From: Escherichia phage vB_Eco_Maverick
Sequence record: NC_073077.1
Reading direction: 5' to 3' (one strand)
DNA length: 42,624 nt
Position 1 is the first letter of the stretch; each line of letters begins with the position of its first letter. The position numbers were made by a program, and so were the translations under genes. This document shows positions 1 through 42,624 of this stretch, piece by piece. The notes beneath the pieces are model-generated. The model did no database searches. It was not told where the DNA came from and was given only the letters and a program-made list of their open reading frames with translations.

Positions 1-127
1 GGGGCGGGACAAAGCGGGACAGCACCCAGTCCCCGCCAGTGCTGCCGCGGTTTTCAGCCGATCGGGACAAGCGGGACAAAGCCCAGTCTTTCAGACTAGA
101 CGGGGGTCAACGGCCCCCCTCGTCTGA
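1..127. repeat. terminal exact repeat; bases 1-127 are identical to 42498-42624 (assembly overlap of a circular or terminally redundant genome)
   Basis: Direct comparison of the first and last 127 nt of the window shows identity; 127 nt is also a common assembler k-mer length. Confidence 0.85.
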
Positions 128-200
128 GACTGAATAAGGTTTGTTTGAAATTCGCTGATACAATGACAGTCGGCAACTGCATAAAAAAGGGGACTGCATA

Positions 201-4265: not shown

Positions 4266-5006
4266 ATGTTGACTAAAAAGGTTAAAAGCGATATCGCCGC
4301 ACATGTCGCGGCATGTCTGCCGGAAGAAGCCTGCGGCCTTGTCGTCATGGTGGGCCGTAAGCAAGTATTCGTCCCGTGCCTTAACGTGTTTGAAGACCCG
4401 ACCGGCGTGCGCTCACGCAAAGACGCTTTCACGATTAGCGATATGGCCTGGATGGATGCCGAGGATATGGGCGACGTCGTGCGAGTAGTCCACTCGCATC
4501 CAGGCCAGCGAGAGCTTACACCCTCACTTGGCGACGTTAACGGATGCAACGGCAGCGGCGTAGTCTGGACCATCACTAACGAATATGGCGACTTTATCGA
4601 GATCGACCCTGAAGACCCGCCGCTGGTAGGCCGCCGATTTGTTCTCGGAATTACAGATTGTTATGGCCTCGTCATGGACTGGCACAAAAAGCAGGGTGTA
4701 AACCTGCCAGACTTCCGCGTGCCGTATAACTGGTGGGAGACAGGCGAAAATCTGTATATGGATAATTGGTACGGTGCTGGCTTCAGGGAATGCGAGGAGA
4801 ATACGCCGGGGGCAATGGTCATCATGCAGATTAGCGCGCCTGTGCCTAACCACGCTGGGATATTCCTTCCGGGCAACCAACTACTACACCATATCTACGG
4901 CAGCCTGTCGAGCGTGATTCCCTTCCGGGCAGGATTTTTCCGCGACAATGTGGTTAAATGGGTACGTCATAAAGACCTACCAGGGAATATCACAGAATGG
5001 CAATGA
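4266..5006 (+). CDS. tail assembly protein K-like (JAB/MPN plus NlpC/P60 domains)
   Basis: JAMM-like motif VHSHPGQRELTPSLGD (H-x-H-x7-S-x2-D) followed by a Cys/His-containing C-terminal half; position after the L-like gene. Confidence 0.75.
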   Translation: MLTKKVKSDIAAHVAACLPEEACGLVVMVGRKQVFVPCLNVFEDPTGVRSRKDAFTISDMAWMDAEDMGDVVRVVHSHPGQRELTPSLGDVNGCNGSGVVWTITNEYGDFIEIDPEDPPLVGRRFVLGITDCYGLVMDWHKKQGVNLPDFRVPYNWWETGENLYMDNWYGAGFRECEENTPGAMVIMQISAPVPNHAGIFLPGNQLLHHIYGSLSSVIPFRAGFFRDNVVKWVRHKDLPGNITEWQ

Positions 5007-5614
5007 CCACGTTTAAATTGTACGGCGTCTTAGGGCGTCGTTTTGGTAAAGTGCATAAGCTGGACTGCTTCACACCGGGAGAAGGCATCACCGGCCTGTG
5101 TGTGAAGTTGCCAGGGTTACAAGACTTTTTAATGTCGGCCCACCTGGACAATATGATGTTCAAGGTGCGCAAAGGCAACCACACGATGACCGGTTATGAT
5201 GAGCTTGGCGAGTTCCACGGCGACCGCGTCGTTACCATCGCGCCGGTTATGACGGGGGCAAAAAGCGGACTGGGCCAATTGCTGGCGGGTGTCGCGATTG
5301 TAGTGGCGTCGTTCTATACTGGCGGACTTGCTACTGCCGCTTTCGGGGCTTCGGCTGCAACCGCTGCCGCTATCGGTACGGCTACATTTTCGTTTGGCAT
5401 GTCGCTTGCGCTGGGCGGTGCTATGCAATTGCTGTCGCCGCAGCCGAAAGGATTGCAGACCCGGCAGGACGTGGATAACAAAGCGTCGTACGCGTTCGGC
5501 GGGCCAGTGAATACAACAGCGCAAGGCACGGCGCTTGGTGTATTATGGGGCGAGCGTGAGATCGGCGGCGCTATTATTTCAGCCGGAATCGTAACCGAGG
5601 ACTTGAACGAATGA
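4997..5614 (+). CDS. tail assembly protein I-like
   Basis: 205 aa; C-terminal half is Gly/Ala-rich and hydrophobic (GLATAAFGASAATAAAIGTATFSFG); located between the K-like and J-like genes. Confidence 0.6.
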   Translation: MAMTTFKLYGVLGRRFGKVHKLDCFTPGEGITGLCVKLPGLQDFLMSAHLDNMMFKVRKGNHTMTGYDELGEFHGDRVVTIAPVMTGAKSGLGQLLAGVAIVVASFYTGGLATAAFGASAATAAAIGTATFSFGMSLALGGAMQLLSPQPKGLQTRQDVDNKASYAFGGPVNTTAQGTALGVLWGEREIGGAIISAGIVTEDLNE

Positions 5615-9703: not shown

Positions 9704-9783
9704 GGTATCATCTCCGGTATTGGGTTGAGTTTTAGTATTACACCGCTCAATCAAGAATGCAACCAATTTATGAGGATTCAGCT

Positions 9784-11439: not shown

Positions 11440-11502
11440 TATGTGGTCCTTTTTATGGGAGGCCGTATTGCCTCCCGACGCGTTAACTATAGTGCAACCA
11501 AC

Positions 11503-11973
11503 CTATTGGTTGCAAGTGAATTTTGCAACGTTTATTGCGTAAATTTTCGGGACCAAATCGCTACACGCCCGACGAATTGCCGCGATGTTCTTCTCGCAAT
11601 CTTCAATGATGACCAGTTCCGACACGTCTGCATAGCAGACCATCTTGAACACGGCACACGCTTTAAACTCTGGCGGCGGGGTGTCATCCAGCATGTGGCG
11701 CATAAACAACCGGCCTGTCGGGAATACTTCCAGTTGCTCGGCGGTAGTCTCCCAACATTCGCGCTGCCGGTTAGTCAGATACGCTATCTCGAAGCCTTGC
11801 TCTTTGTACATGCGCAGCAGCGGCAGCATATCCATGTTCAGGTCTTCGCGTACGTGCGCTTTGTGCCACTTTGCCCAAAAGGTTGATTTCGTTTTTATCC
11901 CCGGCACCAGGTCGGCACGCGCATCGCTTGAGCCATTAATAACGCCATCCAAATCGCAAATCAGTAATTTCAT
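11503..11973 (-). CDS. HAD-superfamily phosphatase-like protein
   Basis: N-terminal MKLLICDLDGVI matches HAD motif I (DxDG); downstream Thr and acidic motifs present; 156 aa. Confidence 0.6.
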   Translation of the reverse strand: MKLLICDLDGVINGSSDARADLVPGIKTKSTFWAKWHKAHVREDLNMDMLPLLRMYKEQGFEIAYLTNRQRECWETTAEQLEVFPTGRLFMRHMLDDTPPPEFKACAVFKMVCYADVSELVIIEDCEKNIAAIRRACSDLVPKIYAINVAKFTCNQ

Positions 11974-21868: not shown

Positions 21869-22120
21869 TTATTTTGTCTCCCAGCGGTCAATTGTTTTTG
21901 CTTCGGATGCAACTGCGAAGCGAACATATTCCAGATTGGAATCCGCCCAAATATAAAAGTCGGGATTAGTAAAGGTGGTGCGCTTAATTTGCGCGGGGGT
22001 ATTGCGGCGCTTGTCTATTACGGCAACGCGTGACTTAAAATTGCCGATGCGTTCGAATAGCCAATAATATGGGCGCTGGTCGCGGGAGTCCACCGCCTCG
22101 ATTAGCGTGAAACGTGCCAT
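21869..22120 (-). CDS. hypothetical protein
   Basis: 83-aa ORF with GAGGA Shine-Dalgarno, preceded by a minus-strand terminator. Confidence 0.45.
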   Translation of the reverse strand: MARFTLIEAVDSRDQRPYYWLFERIGNFKSRVAVIDKRRNTPAQIKRTTFTNPDFYIWADSNLEYVRFAVASEAKTIDRWETK

Positions 22121-22132
22121 TGTCTCGTCCTC

Positions 22133-22160
22133 TAAAAATAGGCCCGCAGATTAGCGGGCC
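22133..22160 (-). terminator. minus-strand rho-independent terminator
   Basis: On the minus strand ggcccgc-taatct-gcgggcc followed by tattttt. Confidence 0.65.
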
Positions 22161-22168
22161 GGATAATA

Positions 22169-22294
22169 TTAATCTTCACCGCCGAGTTGTCTGTAAACCT
22201 CGTCCGGGTCGTCGCCTCTTTCTTCGCAGAAGGCGGTGAATGCCGCCCAATTTTCCGCTATGAAATCGAGCATGATTCTCATTTCATAGTCCAT
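22169..22294 (-). CDS. small hypothetical acidic protein
   Basis: 41-aa ORF MDYEMRIMLDFIAENWAAF... found by eye, below the track cutoff. Confidence 0.3.
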   Translation of the reverse strand: MDYEMRIMLDFIAENWAAFTAFCEERGDDPDEVYRQLGGED

Positions 22295-22298
22295 GATA

Positions 22299-22812
22299 TT
22301 AATCTTCCAGTTCGAAATAGGTTTCGACGATTTCTTTTAACTCTGTGTGGAAGTCTTCGACGTCGTCATCTTCCAGCTTGGCGATTGATTTTATCTCGAA
22401 CGATTCCAGCAGGTCGTCGAATTCGTCGTTCGCATCGTCGTCATCACCACCGGCGATAATCGCGGCATACTGTTTGATTTCGTCGCGCATCTCCGCCAGC
22501 GGATCGGCATCTTTCTTGCCTTTGCCTTTCGCTTTTTTAGCCTTAGCCGGTTTTTCGTCTTCGGCGTCTTCGTCGTCGTCATCTTCTACGACTTCTTTTT
22601 TGGCCTTACCCTTCGCCGGTGCTTTTTTAGCTTTAGCCGGTTTTTCGTCTTCGGCTTCATCGTCGCCATCTTCGACAACTTCTTTTTTGGCCTTAGACGG
22701 CTTCTTGTCGTCCTGCTTACCAACGGCAGCGCCAACGGTTTCATAATGCTTAGCGATGACTTCCAGTGCTACTACGCCGCGAGTGATCAGGTTTACGATT
22801 TGCTCAAACATG
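22299..22812 (-). CDS. charged-repeat protein (acidic blocks alternating with Lys/Ala-rich blocks)
   Basis: Start at MFEQIVNL with GGAG Shine-Dalgarno 8 nt upstream; contains two near-identical ~78-bp DNA repeats (22531-22608 and 22621-22696) encoding KKEVVEDxDDEAEDEKPAKAKKA; the longer frame to 22991 lacks an RBS. Confidence 0.55.
22531..22696. repeat. intragenic tandem repeat, two ~78-bp units with a ~90-bp period
   Basis: gcttttttagccttagccggtttttcgtcttcggc... repeated with a few substitutions. Confidence 0.8.
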
Positions 22813-23213: not shown

Positions 23214-23543
23214 ATGAATATCAAAGAAGCAATTGAAGTGTTATCTAATGCAATCCGCGGCGAAGCGGGTAAATCCTGGTATTACACAAATGCGGTGGAT
23301 ACTCTGTTATTTGAAGTGTCCAGATTATCGCGTGCTGAGAAGGAGCTTACCGCGAAGCTGGAATTGCTCAACGGCACGGCAGCAAGCAAGCTGCAAAAAC
23401 ACAATGAAGAAATGGAAGAATACAAAAAGCAGGTTATCCGTTTGCGCAATGAGGGAAAGTCATGGGCAATGATCGCCGAGTTGACCGGAATTAATCAGAG
23501 CACAGTGCGCTCCTGGGTACGCAATAATAAAACTTCAAAGTAA
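23214..23543 (+). CDS. helix-turn-helix DNA-binding protein (putative transcriptional regulator)
   Basis: 109 aa with coiled-coil centre and C-terminal HTH (KSWAMIAELTGINQSTVRSWV); AGGAG Shine-Dalgarno; first gene of the plus-strand block. Confidence 0.55.
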   Translation: MNIKEAIEVLSNAIRGEAGKSWYYTNAVDTLLFEVSRLSRAEKELTAKLELLNGTAASKLQKHNEEMEEYKKQVIRLRNEGKSWAMIAELTGINQSTVRSWVRNNKTSK

Positions 23544-23553
23544 GGCAACGGCA

Positions 23554-25818
23554 ATGAGCTTGATTAAATTCGCTGTAACACGACCCGCTAAAAAAGGCGA
23601 AAAAGCCAGGGCGGAAAACTTCCAGATGACTACCGAAGAGTTTTTCGAATTTATCAATGATGCGAAAGAAATCTCCTCGGTGCATATCAACAAAACGGAA
23701 GATAAAGCGGAGTATGCGCGCCGCAAGCGTAAGGCTGATGGGATTGTGGCTTATACCAGTGACGGATTACGCCGCAAGACCAGTGCGGTGGATCGCTCGA
23801 TCCTGTTCTTCGATATTGACCGTACCGACACCCGCACCCTGCGCCGCTGCCGTAAGGCGTTCATCGACGCGGGACTGGAACATGTATTTCACACCACAAC
23901 CGGCGATCGCCACCCGCTGAAAGGTGGCACGCGTTGCGCTCGTTTCCTGGTGCTCACTGACAAGCCTGTACCGGCTGAAGACCTGGGCCGCGTCCAGTAT
24001 GCACTATTACACCAACTGGGCCTGTCAGATGTGGACTTCGACGATTGCACGAAAGACACAAACCGCCTTATGTACCTGCCTCACCAGCAATCGGTTGTTA
24101 AGTGTCACTACGGCAAACGTGCCCGCGTCCGTCGTCTGCTGCGCCTGGCGGATAAGCTGGGAGTGGAAAAAGAGGAAGTACGCCGCGAACTAACCCAGGG
24201 CGATGACGGCGTGGCGGACGGCATTCTGGATTGGTGCTTCCAGGCCGGATTCGAACCGCTGTCGTCCGGTCGTGGTTATGAAGTGCCATGCCCGAACGAA
24301 CATCTGCACAGCGGCGAAGGGTCGACGGCTATCATGGTCAAGGATGGCGAGATCCGTTTCAAGTGTATGCACACCGGCAACGAGTGTTGCTCGGAACTGA
24401 ACAGACACCAGCACCTGGCGCTACGTCTTATCGGGATCCCGGACCACCTGAACGTCGAACCGCACAACATGTCACGTAAGCAAATAGCCGCCATCCTCCC
24501 AGGTCTGGACGACGAGGAAGTGGAATCGTGCTATGAACATATCGTTGATGCGGTTGGCGACGGCGACGAGTACGGCGGATGTACGGACGCAGACCTGGAC
24601 AACGAGCCGGTTGCACTGTTCAGTAAACACGACCCGATCATCGAGGGGTTGATTAACTTCAAATCGACCTGGTATATGGCGGGCGAGTCGAACATCGGTA
24701 AATCGTTCTACGTGCTGGGCCAAATGGGTGCTGTTGCCGCGGGTATTCCGTTCGGTGGTGCGAAGGTCGTCCAGTCTCATTGCTTCTATTTCGACGCGGA
24801 AGGTGGCGAAGCCTCCAACCAGCGTAAGGAAGCATTGCAGATTAAATATGAGCACGACCTGGACAAGCTGCACATTATCGATCTGCAATCACGCGGCTGG
24901 GATATCACCAGCAAATCCGGCTTGCGTGAAGTTATCAGCTTCATCAACCGCACCGCTAACGGCGAGCCGGTTGGCCTGGTGGCGTTCGACTCACTCAACC
25001 AGACTGTTGCGCTGCGGTCCGCCGATGCTAAACCGTTCGACGAGAACAACGCCAGCGATATGGGCGAAGTGGTCAAAGCGCTGAAGGCCATTGCGGAAAA
25101 TACAGGCGGCAGTGCGGGCGTCATCCACCACCCGGCGAAAGGTGCAAACGGCAGCAGATCCCCCCGCGGGTCCGGCGCGCTGCATGGTGCTGTTGATTCT
25201 GCGTTCTTCCTGGAACAGCCGGACGACAACCAGCCCGGACAACTGAACCTGTATCACGAGAAGGCACGTAACGGCATCAAGCAAGCGCCGCGCGGATTCG
25301 TCCTGCTCAAGTGCAAGGTTAAGGTGGATCTCCGCAAGTCCGAGGCGTTCGAAGCCCACCAGTCCACCAGCACCGGGCCGGACTTCGGTGACGTCGTTGC
25401 CGGTTGGGACGTCAAGCCGATTGCATCCACGCCTCGCGACGAGACTCTTTACCTCGTACCTGTCGCCCTGGCACCGTTCGCTATCGAACAGGCGAAGGCA
25501 GCGGGCAAGGCCGCAGTTAAGGAAGAGAACACCGCCGGACCGCGCACCGAAAAAGAAAAGGTACTTTACGCGGCCCTGGAAAAACTGATGGAAGATAACC
25601 CGGACCATACCGGATTCAGCAAATCGGCAATTGTCCGCCAGGCTGGGCTTGCGAAAGGTGGCACATCGACGAAGGCAATTGACGATATGGTCGAGCGCGG
25701 CGTGCTAGGTTTTTATACAGACCCACACACCGGGGCCATCTATGGGTCGTCGAATATCGTCATCAAAACGAATATACCCATCACGCTTTCGGCGACCGAC
25801 GACGACCTGAAAGATTAA
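23554..25818 (+). CDS. DNA primase-helicase (primase-polymerase-like N-terminus, RecA/DnaB-type ATPase, C-terminal DNA-binding region)
   Basis: N-terminal acidic motif FFDIDRTD and a Cys/His cluster (CPNEHLH...C..H); Walker A GESNIGKSFYVLG and Walker B LVAFDSLNQ; C-terminal winged-helix-like segment FSKSAIVRQAGLAKGG. Confidence 0.75.
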   Translation: MSLIKFAVTRPAKKGEKARAENFQMTTEEFFEFINDAKEISSVHINKTEDKAEYARRKRKADGIVAYTSDGLRRKTSAVDRSILFFDIDRTDTRTLRRCRKAFIDAGLEHVFHTTTGDRHPLKGGTRCARFLVLTDKPVPAEDLGRVQYALLHQLGLSDVDFDDCTKDTNRLMYLPHQQSVVKCHYGKRARVRRLLRLADKLGVEKEEVRRELTQGDDGVADGILDWCFQAGFEPLSSGRGYEVPCPNEHLHSGEGSTAIMVKDGEIRFKCMHTGNECCSELNRHQHLALRLIGIPDHLNVEPHNMSRKQIAAILPGLDDEEVESCYEHIVDAVGDGDEYGGCTDADLDNEPVALFSKHDPIIEGLINFKSTWYMAGESNIGKSFYVLGQMGAVAAGIPFGGAKVVQSHCFYFDAEGGEASNQRKEALQIKYEHDLDKLHIIDLQSRGWDITSKSGLREVISFINRTANGEPVGLVAFDSLNQTVALRSADAKPFDENNASDMGEVVKALKAIAENTGGSAGVIHHPAKGANGSRSPRGSGALHGAVDSAFFLEQPDDNQPGQLNLYHEKARNGIKQAPRGFVLLKCKVKVDLRKSEAFEAHQSTSTGPDFGDVVAGWDVKPIASTPRDETLYLVPVALAPFAIEQAKAAGKAAVKEENTAGPRTEKEKVLYAALEKLMEDNPDHTGFSKSAIVRQAGLAKGGTSTKAIDDMVERGVLGFYTDPHTGAIYGSSNIVIKTNIPITLSATDDDLKD

Positions 25819-25829
25819 ATTTTGCGTGT

Positions 25830-25928
25830 ATTGGTTGCCGATATGGGAATTCCCATATCGCTAAACGGTTAATTTGTGCGCGCATTGGTTGCCATTTTGA
25901 GTGTTTTTATCTGGTCGTATTGGTTGCC
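25830..25928 (+). repeat. three direct ATTGGTTGCC repeats flanking a perfect 20-bp palindrome
   Basis: ATTGGTTGCC at 25830, 25884 and 25919; GATATGGGAATTCCCATATC at 25840-25859. Confidence 0.8.
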
Positions 25929-25978
25929 GTGTAGTGTAAATATAATGAATAGTTATGCAGTTTTATTGCATAAAGTAG

Positions 25979-26128
25979 GCGGGACAGAAAGCGGGACAAA
26001 CAGGGGGCGGGACAAAGCGGGACAGCACCCCCGTCCCGCCCCGGATGACGCGGCTTCCAGAGGAGCGGGACAGCGGGACAGCACCCCAGTCTTTCAGACT
26101 AGACGGGGGTCAACGGCCCCCCTCGTCT
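25979..26128. repeat. iteron cluster: six direct GCGGGACA octamers plus one inverted copy, ending in a 28-nt GC hairpin (internal copy)
   Basis: GCGGGACA at 25979, 25991, 26007, 26017, 26065, 26073; inverted GTCCCGC at 26033; hairpin agacgggggtcaacggcccccctcgtct at 26101-26128; TGCATAAA box at 25967. Confidence 0.85.
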
Positions 26129-26295
26129 GAGACTGAATAAAATCCGGGGATTGCAAAATACACGGCAGCATGATGCGAAGTGCGGTCGTCGATGAACTAG
26201 GCAACCAATGCGGGTTGTATTATGCTGAGTGAAAAATGCAGTTTTCAGCCACAGCTGATATCGATCAACTTTTTCATGCGCGTGATTAATATTGG

Positions 26296-26324
26296 TTGCA
26301 TTCACCCCAGCACCCTGCTATATT
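26296..26324 (+). promoter_or_regulatory. sigma70-like promoter TTGCAT-N17-TATATT inside ATTGGTTGCA motifs
   Basis: TTGCAT 26296-26301, 17-nt spacer, TATATT 26319-26324, about 28 nt upstream of ATG 26353. Confidence 0.4.
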
Positions 26325-26352
26325 GGTTGCACACCAACATGAGGACTGAACA

Positions 26353-36710: not shown

Positions 36711-36734
36711 GCGTCCTCGTTGTTGGTGTGCAAC

Positions 36735-36763
36735 CAATATATGCAACCAATACGCGGATTGCA
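36735..36763 (-). promoter_or_regulatory. sigma70-like promoter TTGCAA-N17-TATATT for the moron gene
   Basis: Palindromic TTGCAA at 36758-36763 and minus-strand TATATT at plus 36735-36740; followed by leader ggttgcacaccaaca shared with the 26353 gene. Confidence 0.4.
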
Positions 36764-42009: not shown

Positions 42010-42323
42010 TTGAGGCGGCGCGACGCTTTTATGGCCCGCCGCCACCCTCCGAAGATTTAGCCGCAAGTTTATGGGGCGCGGCCCCCGAAGATGTTTGTCC
42101 ACCTGTTGCGCTGTGGCCCGACAACGCGAAGGTAGTCGCAGTCTTCACAGATTGCTCCACGCAATGGCGCACCGGATTTGGTGGCGCATACGGCATCGAC
42201 TACGGCGTGCTGGAGTGGTTATTTAAGATGCACGGTATCGAAAACGAACAGCGCGCGTTTAAAGATATCAAGCTAATGGAACGAATAGCGCTTGATGAGA
42301 TGGCGCAGCAGAACCACGCATAA
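41647..42323 (+). CDS. tail assembly chaperone G-T fusion, made by -1 programmed frameshift at 42000-42006
   Basis: After a -1 slip on A_AAA_AAC the reading frame stays open for about 105 codons (…LIEAARRFYGPPPPSEDLAASLWG…) to the TAA at 42321-42323; this frame has no in-frame start of its own. Confidence 0.6.
42000..42006 (+). other. -1 ribosomal frameshift slippery heptamer A_AAA_AAC
   Basis: Heptamer sits in the zero frame of gene G three codons before its stop; X_XXY_YYZ pattern. Confidence 0.6.
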
Positions 42324-42327
42324 TGAA

Positions 42328-42621
42328 GCGGGACGTCCCGCTTTGTCCCGCCCTGTAAAACCGCATATCTAATCACTTTCATTGCATAAACTCAAAGCGG
42401 GACAGGCGGGACGTCCCGTTTTGTCCCACCCACGAAATGTGCATACCTATTCGAATTTCGTGCATAAAACAAGCGGGACAGAAAGCGGGACAGACAAGGG
42501 GCGGGACAAAGCGGGACAGCACCCAGTCCCCGCCAGTGCTGCCGCGGTTTTCAGCCGATCGGGACAAGCGGGACAAAGCCCAGTCTTTCAGACTAGACGG
42601 GGGTCAACGGCCCCCCTCGTC
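42328..42621. repeat. iteron cluster: GCGGGACGTCCCGC palindromes, about seven direct GCGGGACA octamers, two TGCATAAA boxes, ending in the same 28-nt hairpin (terminal copy, continues into bases 1-200)
   Basis: Palindrome at 42328-42341 and 42406-42418; GCGGGACA at 42397, 42473, 42485, 42501, 42511, 42568; TGCATAAA at 42383 and 42461; hairpin at 42594-42621. Confidence 0.85.
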
Positions 42622-42624
42622 TGA

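Follow-up and report, generated by a model that had tools for sequence, protein, structure and literature searches.

The origin of lambda is of the iteron type with adjacent AT-rich DNA, and among lambdoid phages changes in iteron specificity go along with changes in one initiator domain. For P4, Ziegelin & Lanka are said to have described in 1995 that crr is a second, distant cis site composed of the same repeats. The P4 alpha protein, ORF904 of pRN1 and the RepA/B'/C proteins of RSF1010 use primase, helicase and origin-binding activities at their origins (PMC4234260, PMC2777425), and co-variation of iterons and initiator has been reported for Stx phages (PMC7466680). The origin of PICI/SaPI elements is a non-coding iteron region located directly 3' of the pri-rep gene (sometimes fused), which includes an AT-rich melting site and occurs in several allelic specificity variants (PMC6092414). 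For Dhillonvirus or Guernseyvirinae, no description of a replication origin was found in the searchable literature, and the only literature matches of the octamer presented below were unrelated primer sequences. Judging by its sequence, the element analyzed here is most likely the hitherto undescribed origin of Escherichia phage vB_Eco_Maverick.

The window, i.e. the whole stretch of 42,624 nucleotides that was analyzed (NC_073077.1), represents a circular Dhillonvirus genome with 99.8% identity to Escherichia phage vB_Eco_CS16. Circularity of the contig follows from the overlap of its ends, as bases 1-127 repeat bases 42498-42624 (127 bp). The primase-helicase gene (23554-25818, plus strand) encodes a protein of 754 aa comprising an AEP-type primase (approximately residues 1-200), a Cys/His cluster (246-279), a RepA-like helicase (Pfam AAA_25, residues 357-531, E 2.4e-19) and, within the last ~90 residues, a predicted C-terminal winged helix (approximately residues 666-737). 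The primase and C-terminal domains were assigned via structure prediction because the protein sequence gave no match in the PDB and Pfam searches with the isolated N- and C-terminal parts detected nothing. RSF1010 RepB' was among the top structural matches of the AEP primase domain, and for a Kagunavirus homologue the GenBank note mentions that HHpred matched it to RepA (PDB 1NLF). A small HTH protein of 109 aa (Pfam HTH_23 / Sigma70_r4_2), a possible regulator that perhaps binds to the ATTGGTTGC motif, is encoded just upstream (23214-23543, plus strand). The cumulative GC skew of the whole genome has its minimum at approximately 23,000 and not at copy 1 of the element. Since this minimum coincides with the switch of transcription direction, the skew is uninformative about the origin.

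An earlier inspection of the DNA, hereafter the sequence-only reading, had described a gene-free stretch behind the primase-helicase gene, and this description holds. Mechanical ORFs over the repeats (e.g. 25876-26130) are not conserved, as 1-nt indels inside them in relatives rule out coding. The core element has a size of approximately 190 bp (25930-26135) and is composed of an AT-rich patch, an inverted repeat, iterons and a hairpin. The patch (25930-25979, 74% AT) contains a conserved GAATAGTTAT box and is a candidate DNA unwinding element; only 0.09% of the 50-bp windows of this genome reach 72% AT. In its composition the patch corresponds to the AT-rich DNA adjoining iteron-type origins, its unwinding being predicted. 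Inside the patch lies the inverted repeat TTATGCA-N7-TGCATAA (arms 25953-25959 and 25967-25973), whose arms are conserved and whose 7-nt spacer is variable among relatives, and TGAATAGTTATGCA is invariant across three iteron classes. The TGCATAAA box that had been noticed before was located at position 25967.

The iteron array (25979-26080) consists of six direct GCGGGACA octamers on the plus strand, starting at 25979, 25991, 26007, 26017, 26065 and 26073, and of the oppositely oriented iteron GTCCCGC (26033-26039). Hence, all repeats listed in the sequence-only reading (six direct octamers plus an inverted copy) are present, the inverted one matching the octamer at seven of eight positions. 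Six direct and one inverted repeat within 102 bp form a cluster of the kind known from iteron-type origins. The first four iterons have start-to-start spacings of 12, 16 and 10 nt, a GC-rich spacer (26040-26064) separates two iteron groups, and the AT-rich patch is positioned on one side (5') of the array, not between two iteron sets. Exact octamers occur 18 times in the window compared to 1.99 expected copies, a number to which no shuffle got, and 12 of them lie at the two ends of the window, outside the interval considered before. The CGGGAC core was counted 31 times in the unique genome; 19 of these copies are situated inside the two elements described here, which make up less than 1% of the genome. 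Downstream of the primase-helicase stop codon, the repeats begin after 160 bp (5-120 bp in relatives), and by this position the locus shares the PICI/SaPI layout with the origin directly 3' of the initiator gene. Comparison within Dhillonvirus (19 copy-1 and 15 copy-2 variants) revealed no variation in the cores and hairpin stems of either set, while spacers and the hairpin loop vary; for copy 1, this applies to the CGGGAC(A) cores and the spacers between them.

The array is followed by an imperfect hairpin of 49 nt (CAGTCTTTCAGACTAGACGGGGGTCAACGGCCCCCCTCGTCTGAGACTG, 26087-26135, plus strand), a candidate single-strand initiation (priming) signal or cruciform. Folded as RNA, it has a moderate stability (-28.9 kcal/mol, z -2.1). 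The GC-rich 28-nt hairpin recognized at first exists (stem 26102-26129), but it is only the top of the larger structure. It had also been stated that no T-run follows and that the hairpin is therefore not a simple terminator. This was corroborated, as a T-run is missing behind the hairpin on either strand and scans for intrinsic terminators gave no match at the hairpin of either copy; owing to weak -35 hexamers, the consensus promoter scan misses the promoters that were identified by eye. A search of the whole window with Rfam 15 yielded no match at the gathering threshold and, in this region, only hits at chance level (E 1.3 and 4.4), and tRNA/tmRNA scans of the window found nothing. Among 25 variants, differences occur in the apical loop but not in the right arm, the left arm being invariant by construction since it served as the 22-nt search pattern. 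Covariation within the genus could not be scored because the stems never vary. A long hairpin downstream of the repeats also exists in most lineages outside Dhillonvirus: non-homologous hairpins at the equivalent position were detected in four of five other lineages, with z values from -2.8 to -5.1.

The surroundings of the element are rich in motifs of another kind. Three ATTGGTTGCC repeats, which the sequence-only reading had placed within the origin, are indeed present at 25830, 25884 and 25919 (span 25830-25927, plus strand). However, they represent local occurrences of a genome-wide promoter/operator motif and were ruled out as origin iterons. The underlying ATTGGTTGC motif was found 16 times in the window (0.54 copies expected), exclusively in intergenic DNA, and elsewhere in the genome it provides the -35 hexamer (TTGCAT-N17-TATATT) or makes up palindromes. 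Behind the third ATTGGTTGCC copy, at a distance of 13 nt, a TATAAT hexamer (25941-25946) is directed into the element. Additional members not listed previously are an inverted ATTGGTTGC-motif copy 3' of the hairpin (approximately 26200-26209, minus strand), conserved in the Dhillonvirus variants, and two ATTGGTTGCA motifs at 26291 and 26322 (plus strand). The latter overlap, together with a TTGGT-N5-ACCAA palindrome, the promoter for the downstream genes (26291-26337, plus strand), which was read by eye and has the -35 hexamer TTGCAT (26296-26301), a 17-nt spacer and the -10 hexamer TATATT (26319-26324). A 29-nt copy of this promoter with 93% identity precedes another gene (36713-36741, minus strand). 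Thus, the ATTGGTTGC motifs and promoters around the element are transcription signals and not iterons, though they may activate or insulate the origin. As regards the perfect palindrome proposed as an origin component, it was confirmed to be perfect, but it measures 22 rather than 20 bp (CGATATGGGAATTCCCATATCG, 25839-25860), contains an EcoRI site and lies inside a 54-bp local duplication. The chance expectation of such a palindrome in 42.6 kb is approximately 0.01 (42,600 x 4^-11). Since the 54-bp block is absent from 11 of the 19 Dhillonvirus variants, the palindrome is dispensable and had to be removed from the origin.

A paralogue of copy 1, missed by the sequence-only reading, spans the contig junction between the genes for the tail-assembly chaperone and the tape measure protein (gene names according to the CS16 record). 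Its left part (42324-42624, plus strand) begins behind the chaperone gene, which ends at 42323, and carries two TGCATAAA boxes (42383, 42461) together with nine CGGGAC cores in direct orientation (42329, 42398, 42407, 42474, 42486, 42502, 42512, 42560 and 42569) and three in inverted orientation (42335, 42345 and 42413). The hairpin of copy 2 (plus strand) starts at 42581 and crosses the junction, corresponding to 84-132 in the numbering of the 5' end. The right part (1-200, plus strand), preserved in all 15 copy-2 variants, harbors the extended -10 promoter-like sequence TGATACAAT (156-164) and is followed by the tape measure gene from 201 onwards. The two copies are 86% identical over 165 bp; their hairpin segments are 100% identical in this genome compared to approximately 86% for the flanks. 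They lie 16.5 kb apart in direct orientation, and copy 2 possesses about twice as many iterons. Two places per record were found in 28 of the 30 records listed, the exceptions being TH11 (three) and P-GXEC-L2P5 (seven), and paired element loci also exist in IMG/VR contigs. The unrelated lineage L010 has a second copy of its own, built from the L010 iteron, while none was found in GRNsp27. A second copy is therefore not universally required. The loci of L008, L009 and L011-L013 are parts of genomes only, for which a missing second copy is uninformative. By analogy, copy 2 could function as a second origin or else, in the manner of P4 crr, as an enhancer or partner site acting from a distance, and its presence strengthens the presumed functional analogy with P4 (ori plus crr). 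Each copy is preceded by an operon and followed by a promoter, which would be compatible with a function in transcription as well.

With the exception of Kagunavirus, all lineages examined carry a repeat of their own immediately behind the primase-helicase stop codon. A search of related phages for the octamer, as suggested by the sequence-only reading, disclosed that CGGGACA is kept across Dhillonvirus (primase-helicase identity 68-100%) and that other lineages carry a different repeat at the same site: GGGGGAGA in GRNsp27 (five copies, all at one site, 0.7 expected), TTGCGAG in L010 and L012, GGGATCA in L011, TTCCGCACA in L013 and CGGACAA in L044. Arrays at the equivalent position exist even where the primase-helicases are only 44-49% identical. 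On the other hand, no iteron array follows the primase-helicase gene of the Kagunavirus Schulenburg, whose protein is 33% identical, and the layout can therefore not be extended to all relatives.

L044 was compared with L045 and GRNsp27. The proteins share 96% identity in the primase domain and 96% in the helicase domain but only 42% in the winged helix. Their DNA is 85-95% identical as far as residue ~653 and only 35-57% identical in the part encoding the winged helix; identity then reaches 82% in the first 60-nt window past the stop codon (4364), where GAATAGTTATGC boxes are shared, drops to 37-53% over iterons and hairpin and returns to 85-98% at the promoter. This pattern suggests a natural domain swap in which only the winged helix, the repeats and the hairpin were exchanged. 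The winged helix is altogether the most divergent domain between iteron classes (21-38% identity compared to 55-94% within a class). Winged helix and iterons thus co-vary in sequence, the natural swap included, with binding as a prediction, yet this co-variation is confounded by adjacency, since only ~100-400 bp lie between the winged-helix segment and the iterons and a single recombination could move both. Moreover, the iterons and the hairpin of L044 resemble those of Dhillonvirus and the recognition helix of L044 does not, which speaks against a simple helix-to-iteron code. Two other candidate readers of the iterons were considered and rejected. The HTH protein differs at a single residue (position 10) among the Salmonella-phage relatives L044, L045 and GRNsp27, i.e. 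between phages with different iterons. The small ORF between the HTH and primase-helicase genes is unrelated in each of these three phages, including the pair sharing one iteron.

From these sequence comparisons we infer, with a probability of roughly 0.6, that the segment 25930-26135 is the replication origin or an essential cis-acting replication site, that the junction element is its second copy, and that both act in a step-wise mechanism. The idea that octamer iterons beside the primase-helicase gene form an origin read by the C-terminal domain of this protein had already been put forward in the sequence-only reading. What remains of it are the iteron array, the winged-helix fold, the fixed 3' position and the co-variation; the ATTGGTTGCC repeats, the palindrome and the homology to P4 have to be abandoned. 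In the proposed mechanism, the 754-aa protein would be the single initiator and would bind to the CGGGACA iterons via its winged helix, as the co-variation suggests. By analogy to iteron origins, its multimerization on the phased iterons (12, 16 and 10 nt, head-to-head copies) might melt the 74% AT patch and load the helicase domain. Unwinding could then allow the 49-nt hairpin to extrude as single-stranded DNA on which the AEP primase starts a primer, this being the most speculative step, and the primer would be extended by the phage DNA polymerase I.

A rather unlikely alternative is that the element serves as a boundary of transcription or as a regulatory array, whose repeats bind a phage regulator of the downstream promoter or block read-through and whose hairpin acts as a non-canonical terminator, an attenuator or a processing site in RNA. 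Each copy lies between the end of a gene block and a promoter-like sequence (TTGCAT-N17-TATATT at 26296-26324 and TGATACAAT at 156-164), copies of the genome-wide promoter/operator motif ATTGGTTGC crowd the region, and the annotators of CS16 placed a terminator over the inverted iteron pair. However, there is no T-run after any of the hairpins and the scans recorded no terminator there. Despite different downstream genes, all lineages have the repeats behind the primase-helicase gene, the repeats co-vary with a domain of a replication enzyme, and the only dedicated regulator nearby, the HTH protein, is nearly the same in different repeat classes (one residue, position 10). Furthermore, Dhillonvirus and L010 have their second copies at different places. 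It is considerably less probable that a cis-acting RNA is present in two copies per genome, be it an antiterminator like put of HK022 or an RNA stability element, which would render the polymerase or the transcript resistant to downstream signals. Both copies would be sense-transcribed due to their common orientation, the complete identity of the hairpins contrasts with flanks of approximately 86%, and stems are kept while loops vary. Against this stand the lack of an Rfam family match, constant stems that leave no covariation to score, the moderate folding stability (z -2.1), the single copy in GRNsp27 and the replacement of the hairpin along with iterons and winged helix in the L044/L045 swap.

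It is very improbable that the repeats are a packaging recognition site (pac or cos-B type) for the small terminase. Terminase sites are often arrays of short repeats, and the packaging site of the genus is not settled, as the published calls disagree (cos for EE09, headful for BF9; PMC10673088, PMC10059673). But there are two elements, of which copy 1 is situated approximately 5 kb upstream of terS and copy 2 in the tail operon. This genome lacks the cos sequence reported for EE09, which bears no relation to the repeats, and the repeats co-vary with the C-terminus of the primase-helicase, while small terminase similarity is not grouped by repeat class in a comparison that left out the Maverick genome itself. 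Finally, the element occurs at two separate places with a size of ~170-190 bp, contains internal repeats and a hairpin and is in one case oddly placed, between the chaperone and tape measure genes, all of which is reminiscent of a selfish or neutral duplicated repeat (MITE-like) without function for the phage. This explanation is hardly credible since both copies occupy the same two positions genus-wide, cores and stems are invariant while spacers drift, terminal inverted repeats and target-site duplications are lacking, the copy number is only two, and equivalent arrays exist in phages whose proteins are merely 44-49% identical.

Returning to the origin, a more far-reaching model is conceivable, which we regard as tentative and on balance doubtful. 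Dhillonviruses and part of the Guernseyvirinae might possess a bipartite origin at which one tri-functional polypeptide carries out all steps of an IncQ-style initiation. Exchangeable iteron cassettes would be recognized by its winged helix, melting of the AT patch would be the task of the RepA-like ring, and a DNA hairpin specific to the cassette would be the start site for the AEP primase. The second iteron and hairpin cassette in a late (tail or head) operon would be an obligatory partner like P4 crr or would link replication with late transcription. Together, the winged helix, the iterons and the hairpin would then constitute a horizontally exchangeable specificity module, and the extruded hairpin could be perceived by hairpin-sensing defences. 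That OLD might sense the origin hairpin is hinted at by escape mutations of HK578, since escapers of OLD map to the helicase-primase gene and its promoter (bioRxiv 10.64898/2026.07.10.737580).

The Dhillonviruses (HK578 and several phages of the BASEL collection) and their Salmonella-phage relatives belong to the enterobacterial siphoviruses that are isolated most often and serve in studies on phage-host interactions and phage defence. The proposed map comprises the iterons, the AT patch, the hairpin, the candidate reader domain (residues ~650-754) and the second site in the tail operon. Precise knowledge of the origin would be useful for the interpretation of marker frequencies, for replication-competent vectors and replication-defective phages, and for testing whether the origin hairpins of these phages are sensed by defences such as OLD or Lamassu. 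The natural specificity swaps are ready material on the evolution of initiator-origin specificity. With its modelled domains, the protein is a third, independently assembled primase/helicase/winged-helix initiator besides those of P4 and pRN1, made from AEP and RepA-like parts.

What the locus has in common with P4 is the union of primase, helicase and C-terminal winged-helix origin-binding domain in one polypeptide (PMC2777425, PMC4234260), the winged helix being predicted in our case, as well as short, roughly octamer-sized repeats, of which one cluster lies beside the 3' end of the initiator gene. Like P4, the phage has two separated cis sites of one short repeat (copy 1, 25930-26135; copy 2, 42324-42624/1-200). 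Nevertheless, the P4-type parallel drawn in the sequence-only reading does not extend to homology. The primase of P4 alpha is of the Toprim/DnaG type and its helicase belongs to SF3 (D5-like), whereas the 754-aa protein has an AEP-type and not a Toprim primase, and a helicase with a RepA-like RecA fold (AAA_25) instead of an SF3 domain; the two proteins share no sequence similarity. The P4 repeat differs from CGGGACA, there is no described P4 counterpart of the conserved hairpin, and P4 is an 11.6-kb satellite, not a 42-kb virulent siphovirus. By contrast, ORF904 of pRN1 is likewise a single protein uniting an AEP-type prim/pol with a helicase and a C-terminal winged helix, and its origin downstream of the 3' end of the gene needs a long stem-loop (PMC4234260), which recalls the hairpin 3' of the gene studied here. 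An origin of this stem-loop type has also been proposed for the Bordetella phage BIP-1. However, the helicase of pRN1 belongs to SF3 and its origin has no iterons, while iterons dominate in our element and the stem-loop is only half as long.

PICI/SaPI origins resemble the element in that iterons and AT-rich DNA are positioned directly 3' of the initiator gene. In PICIs, though, two iteron sets flank the AT-rich region, while in Maverick the AT patch precedes the array and the iteron groups flank a GC-rich spacer. The PICI Rep proteins belong to another family, and neither a distant second copy nor a conserved hairpin is described for PICIs. Lambda likewise has a phage iteron origin beside AT-rich DNA, but this origin lies inside the O gene in a single copy, and O lacks enzymatic domains and recruits the host DnaB via P. 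RSF1010 shares the RepA-family hexameric helicase (Pfam AAA_25), and its RepB' starts primers at the ssiA/ssiB hairpins, a role which is proposed for the Maverick hairpin by analogy. On the other hand, RSF1010 employs three separate proteins whose counterparts are fused in the phage, and RepC does not form the C-terminal winged helix of a helicase. IncQ iterons have a length of ~20-22 bp and occur in 3-4 copies, compared to 7-8-bp cores in 7-12 copies, and the two ssi hairpins of RSF1010 lie on opposite strands of one origin, whereas each of the two elements in direct orientation contains a single hairpin. The best reading of these similarities and differences is that the element probably has a mode of action like that of P4 ori/crr and RSF1010 oriV, without being a member of either family.

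Bases 1-127 recur exactly at the other end of the contig (42498-42624). An exact 127-bp overlap of this kind shows that the assembly is circular (k-mer 127), with a unique genome of 42,497 bp (GC content 54.5%), and that the ends of the window are no biological termini. The gene-free stretch at 25819-26352, which follows the gene of the genus's replicative helicase-primase (754 aa, 23554-25818, plus strand), had been proposed from the sequence alone to be a P4-like replication origin. This stretch is 99.8% identical to Escherichia phage vB_Eco_CS16. Matches were found in 157 phage records; in 146 of these they extend over 80% or more of the query, nearly all being Escherichia Dhillonvirus. Among the matches listed, nearly every record contained two matching places.

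The core of the element (25930-26135) comprises an AT-rich patch, an inverted repeat, iterons and a hairpin. Six direct copies of GCGGGACA plus an inverted one (identical in 7 of 8 positions), the TGCATAAA box, three copies of ATTGGTTGCC and a GC-rich hairpin without a subsequent T-run, all noticed by the sequence-only reading, were found in the sequence. At its fuller extent, the hairpin is an imperfect structure of 49 nt (26087-26135, plus strand). The window contains 18 copies of the octamer GCGGGACA where two would be expected, and 12 of them lie at its two ends. AT content reaches 74% in the 50 bp immediately 5' to the iterons, a level attained by just 0.09% of the windows in the genome. 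The stretch was rightly described as gene-free, since the ORFs across it contain 1-nt indels among relatives and are thus mechanical only. The reported palindrome is perfect but measures 22 bp rather than 20 bp. It arose, together with its EcoRI site and an extra ATTGGTTGCC, from a duplication (25807-25893) in which a 33-nt segment spanning the primase-helicase stop codon recurs 54 bp further downstream with 79% identity. Of 19 Dhillonvirus variants, 8 possess the 54-bp block with one ATTGGTTGCC and the palindrome. Because it is missing in the other 11 and results from a local duplication of the stop-codon surroundings, these alignments place it outside the functional core.

The repeat ATTGGTTGC was rejected as an origin repeat on account of its genome-wide, intergenic distribution and its use in -35 hexamers and palindromes. 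Sixteen copies exist in the genome (0.5 expected), all intergenic, at 9759(-), 11505, 13410(-), 13427(-), 16363(-), 23015, 25830, 25884, 25919, 26201(-), 26291, 26322, 27000(-), 29496(-), 36730(-) and 36743(-). The motif often provides the -35 hexamer (e.g. TTGCAT, 17 nt, TATATT at 26296-26324); at several sites its TTGC(A/T)x end takes this role, with TATATT, TATAGT or TAATAC 17 nt away. Palindromes are formed from it as well, namely GCAACCAA-N4-TTGGTTGC (11494-11513) and TTGGT-N5-ACCAA (26323-26337). The motif probably represents an early/middle promoter overlapped by an operator, and the small HTH protein encoded at 23214-23543 is a candidate for its binding. Related phages contain the variants GTTGGCAGC, GTTGGCCGC and TGTTGGCTG. 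One promoter/operator segment of 29 nt (ATTGGTTGCACACCAACA...GAGGAC) recurs with 93% identity, at 36713-36751 (-) and 26319-26346 (+); the two sites precede different genes on opposite strands, one of them lying within the head-gene block and driving a minus-strand gene.

A paralogue of the core element (copy 2, the former being copy 1) spans the circular junction (42324-42624 into 1-200) with 86% identity over 165 bp. Both copies have the same order of parts, namely the TGCATAAA box, iterons, the inverted copy, two further iterons and the hairpin. Iteron spacing (12/16/10) and hairpin sequence are common to them, and the number of CGGGAC cores is roughly doubled in copy 2. This copy separates the gene of the tail-assembly chaperone from that of the tape measure, two genes whose junction is tight as a rule. 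The equivalent stretch in the related Salmonella phage GRNsp27 is coding. An exact IMG/VR search with the left arm of the hairpin yielded 30 loci on 16 contigs, 14 of which carry both copies on the same strand, with 6-8 cores in copy 1 and 11-14 in copy 2. When 19 distinct sequences of copy 1 and 15 of copy 2 were aligned, little or no variation was seen in the CGGGAC(A) cores, the TTATGCA-N7-TGCATAA arms, the hairpin stems and the TGCATAAA box; for the left hairpin arm this holds by construction, as it was the search pattern itself. The spacers, both between cores and within the inverted repeat (7 nt), varied freely, as did the hairpin's apical loop. Copy 2 could serve as a further origin or, like crr of P4, as a partner site. 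Since the extended -10 promoter-like TGATACAAT (156-164) is conserved between the copy-2 hairpin (24 nt upstream) and the tape measure start codon (37 nt downstream), its presence suggests that the tail genes have a promoter of their own.

Primase-helicase homologues were found at identities between 98% and about 43%. The genomic context was examined for ten of them, and in all but Kagunavirus a gene-free stretch of approximately 360-650 bp follows the stop codon, opening with a lineage-specific cluster of short repeats. In HK578 and the related loci L009 and L008, whose proteins are 87, 83 and 68% identical, respectively, this repeat is CGGGACA. Other loci possess TTGCGAG (L010, L012), GGGATCA (L011), TTCCGCACA (L013), CGGACAA (L044) or GGGGGAGA (L045 and GRNsp27). 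GRNsp27 has five GGGGGAGA copies genome-wide, every one at this site (0.7 expected). Of five other lineages tested, four have a long hairpin behind the repeats, unrelated in sequence (z -2.8 to -5.1). In L010, whose primase-helicase is 49% identical, a second paralogous copy is made from its own TTGCGAG repeat (22098-22301); it is placed after a head-morphogenesis gene and thus differs in site from copy 2 of Dhillonvirus. No second copy was detected in GRNsp27, and no iteron array after the primase-helicase gene of Kagunavirus Schulenburg (33% identity). Directly 5' of the iterons, a (T/G)GAATAGTTAT(G/T)C box is common to phages with unlike iterons (Dhillonvirus, GRNsp27, L044/L045). It is located at 25946-25959 in the window and at 4833-4866 (L005), 4385-4420 (L044) and 5273-5334 (L006) in related phages, occurs twice and palindromic in GRNsp27, and is also found twice in Schulenburg, which is devoid of the array. 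The box may be bound by a factor of the host or by one conserved among the phages. The same intergenic region of the 68%-identity lineage contains a (CACACG)n microsatellite (L008, 12590-12615).

Within the primase-helicase, Pfam recognized only the central AAA_25 (RepA-like) ATPase; AlphaFold models from a 42-sequence alignment cover the remaining domains. Domain-by-domain comparison identified the helicase core as the most conserved domain (60-99%) and the winged helix as the most divergent one between iteron classes (21-38%, versus 55-94% within a class). Among 119 full-length homologues (P0001-P0120), the winged helix (residues ~655-754) forms at least 20 classes at 70% identity. There were 1,752 discordant pairs, the primase and helicase domains often being more than 95% identical across winged-helix classes. 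Such unlike winged helices on near-identical enzymatic domains indicate, at the sequence level, that the last domain is frequently exchanged as a module.

The most telling comparison was a natural mosaic, with L044 (class D) set against L045 and GRNsp27 (class A). At the protein level, the primase and helicase domains are each 96% identical, the winged helix 42%. DNA identity amounts to 85-95% as far as codon ~653, 35-57% across the winged-helix segment, 82% in the first 60-nt window past the stop codon (4364), over shared GAATAGTTATGC boxes, 37-53% over iterons and hairpin, and 85-98% once more at the promoter that follows. The repeats are correspondingly different (CGGACAA versus GGGGGAGA), bearing in mind that the winged-helix segment adjoins the iterons and one recombination event could move both. 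The upstream HTH protein was removed as specificity determinant, as it differs by one residue (position 10) across the three phages despite unlike iterons. The small ORF between the HTH and primase-helicase genes was also removed, because it is unrelated in all three, even in the iteron-sharing L045 and GRNsp27. Removal of both leaves the winged helix as the candidate reader of the repeats. The CGGACAA iterons and hairpin (AGTCTTAACAGACTGGATGGGGG...) of L044 (4420-4600) resemble those of Dhillonvirus (window 25975-26140), and its recognition helix looks unrelated to theirs; this likeness reflects either DNA exchange between genera or convergence.

Starting from the anatomy, selection pattern, positional conservation, co-variation and folds documented here, the following course of initiation can be envisaged. 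The winged helix would bind the iterons; multimers would then open up the AT patch and bring the RepA-like ring onto the DNA. Extrusion of the hairpin would offer a start site to the AEP primase, and the primer would then be extended by the phage polymerase. The priming step is the weakest link of the model and is borrowed from RSF1010, which, according to the summary in PMC4234260, uses RepC for iteron binding, RepA for unwinding and RepB' for priming at the ssiA/ssiB hairpins. It is unlikely that the element instead constitutes a transcriptional boundary or a regulator array: a promoter is situated just downstream of each copy and the region is rich in the promoter/operator motif, but the link to the C-terminus of the primase-helicase would be left unexplained. 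Less likely than this are an RNA element, which is improbable, a pac site, for which the chance is slighter, and a neutral repeat, the least probable explanation. The origin reading stands in its core, without the ATTGGTTGCC/ATTGGTTGC repeats, the palindrome and the assignment to P4.

A literature search for a Dhillonvirus or Guernseyvirinae origin found no description. According to the available part of a preprint on HK578 (Dhillonvirus), escapers of the P2 OLD system map to the helicase-primase gp46 and the gp45-gp46 promoter, and its authors propose that OLD detects single-stranded hairpins at phage origins (bioRxiv 10.64898/2026.07.10.737580); no HK578 origin map was found in that part. 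The hairpins of copies 1 and 2 are obvious candidates for the structures sensed. Similar arrangements are known from P4, where ori/crr is served by the alpha protein, a single chain with primase, helicase and winged helix (PMC2777425, PMC4234260), from the pri-rep-ori modules of PICI/SaPI, whose origin with iterons and an AT-rich site lies directly 3' of the initiator gene (PMC6092414), and from pRN1, where ORF904 is followed by a stem-loop origin (PMC4234260). However, the element belongs to none of these systems, because the primase is of the AEP and not the Toprim type, the helicase is RepA-like and not SF3, the binding domain is fused to the enzyme, in contrast to the separate RepC, and the AT patch is not flanked by two sets of iterons. 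The candidate origin element is a variation on a well-known type of system.
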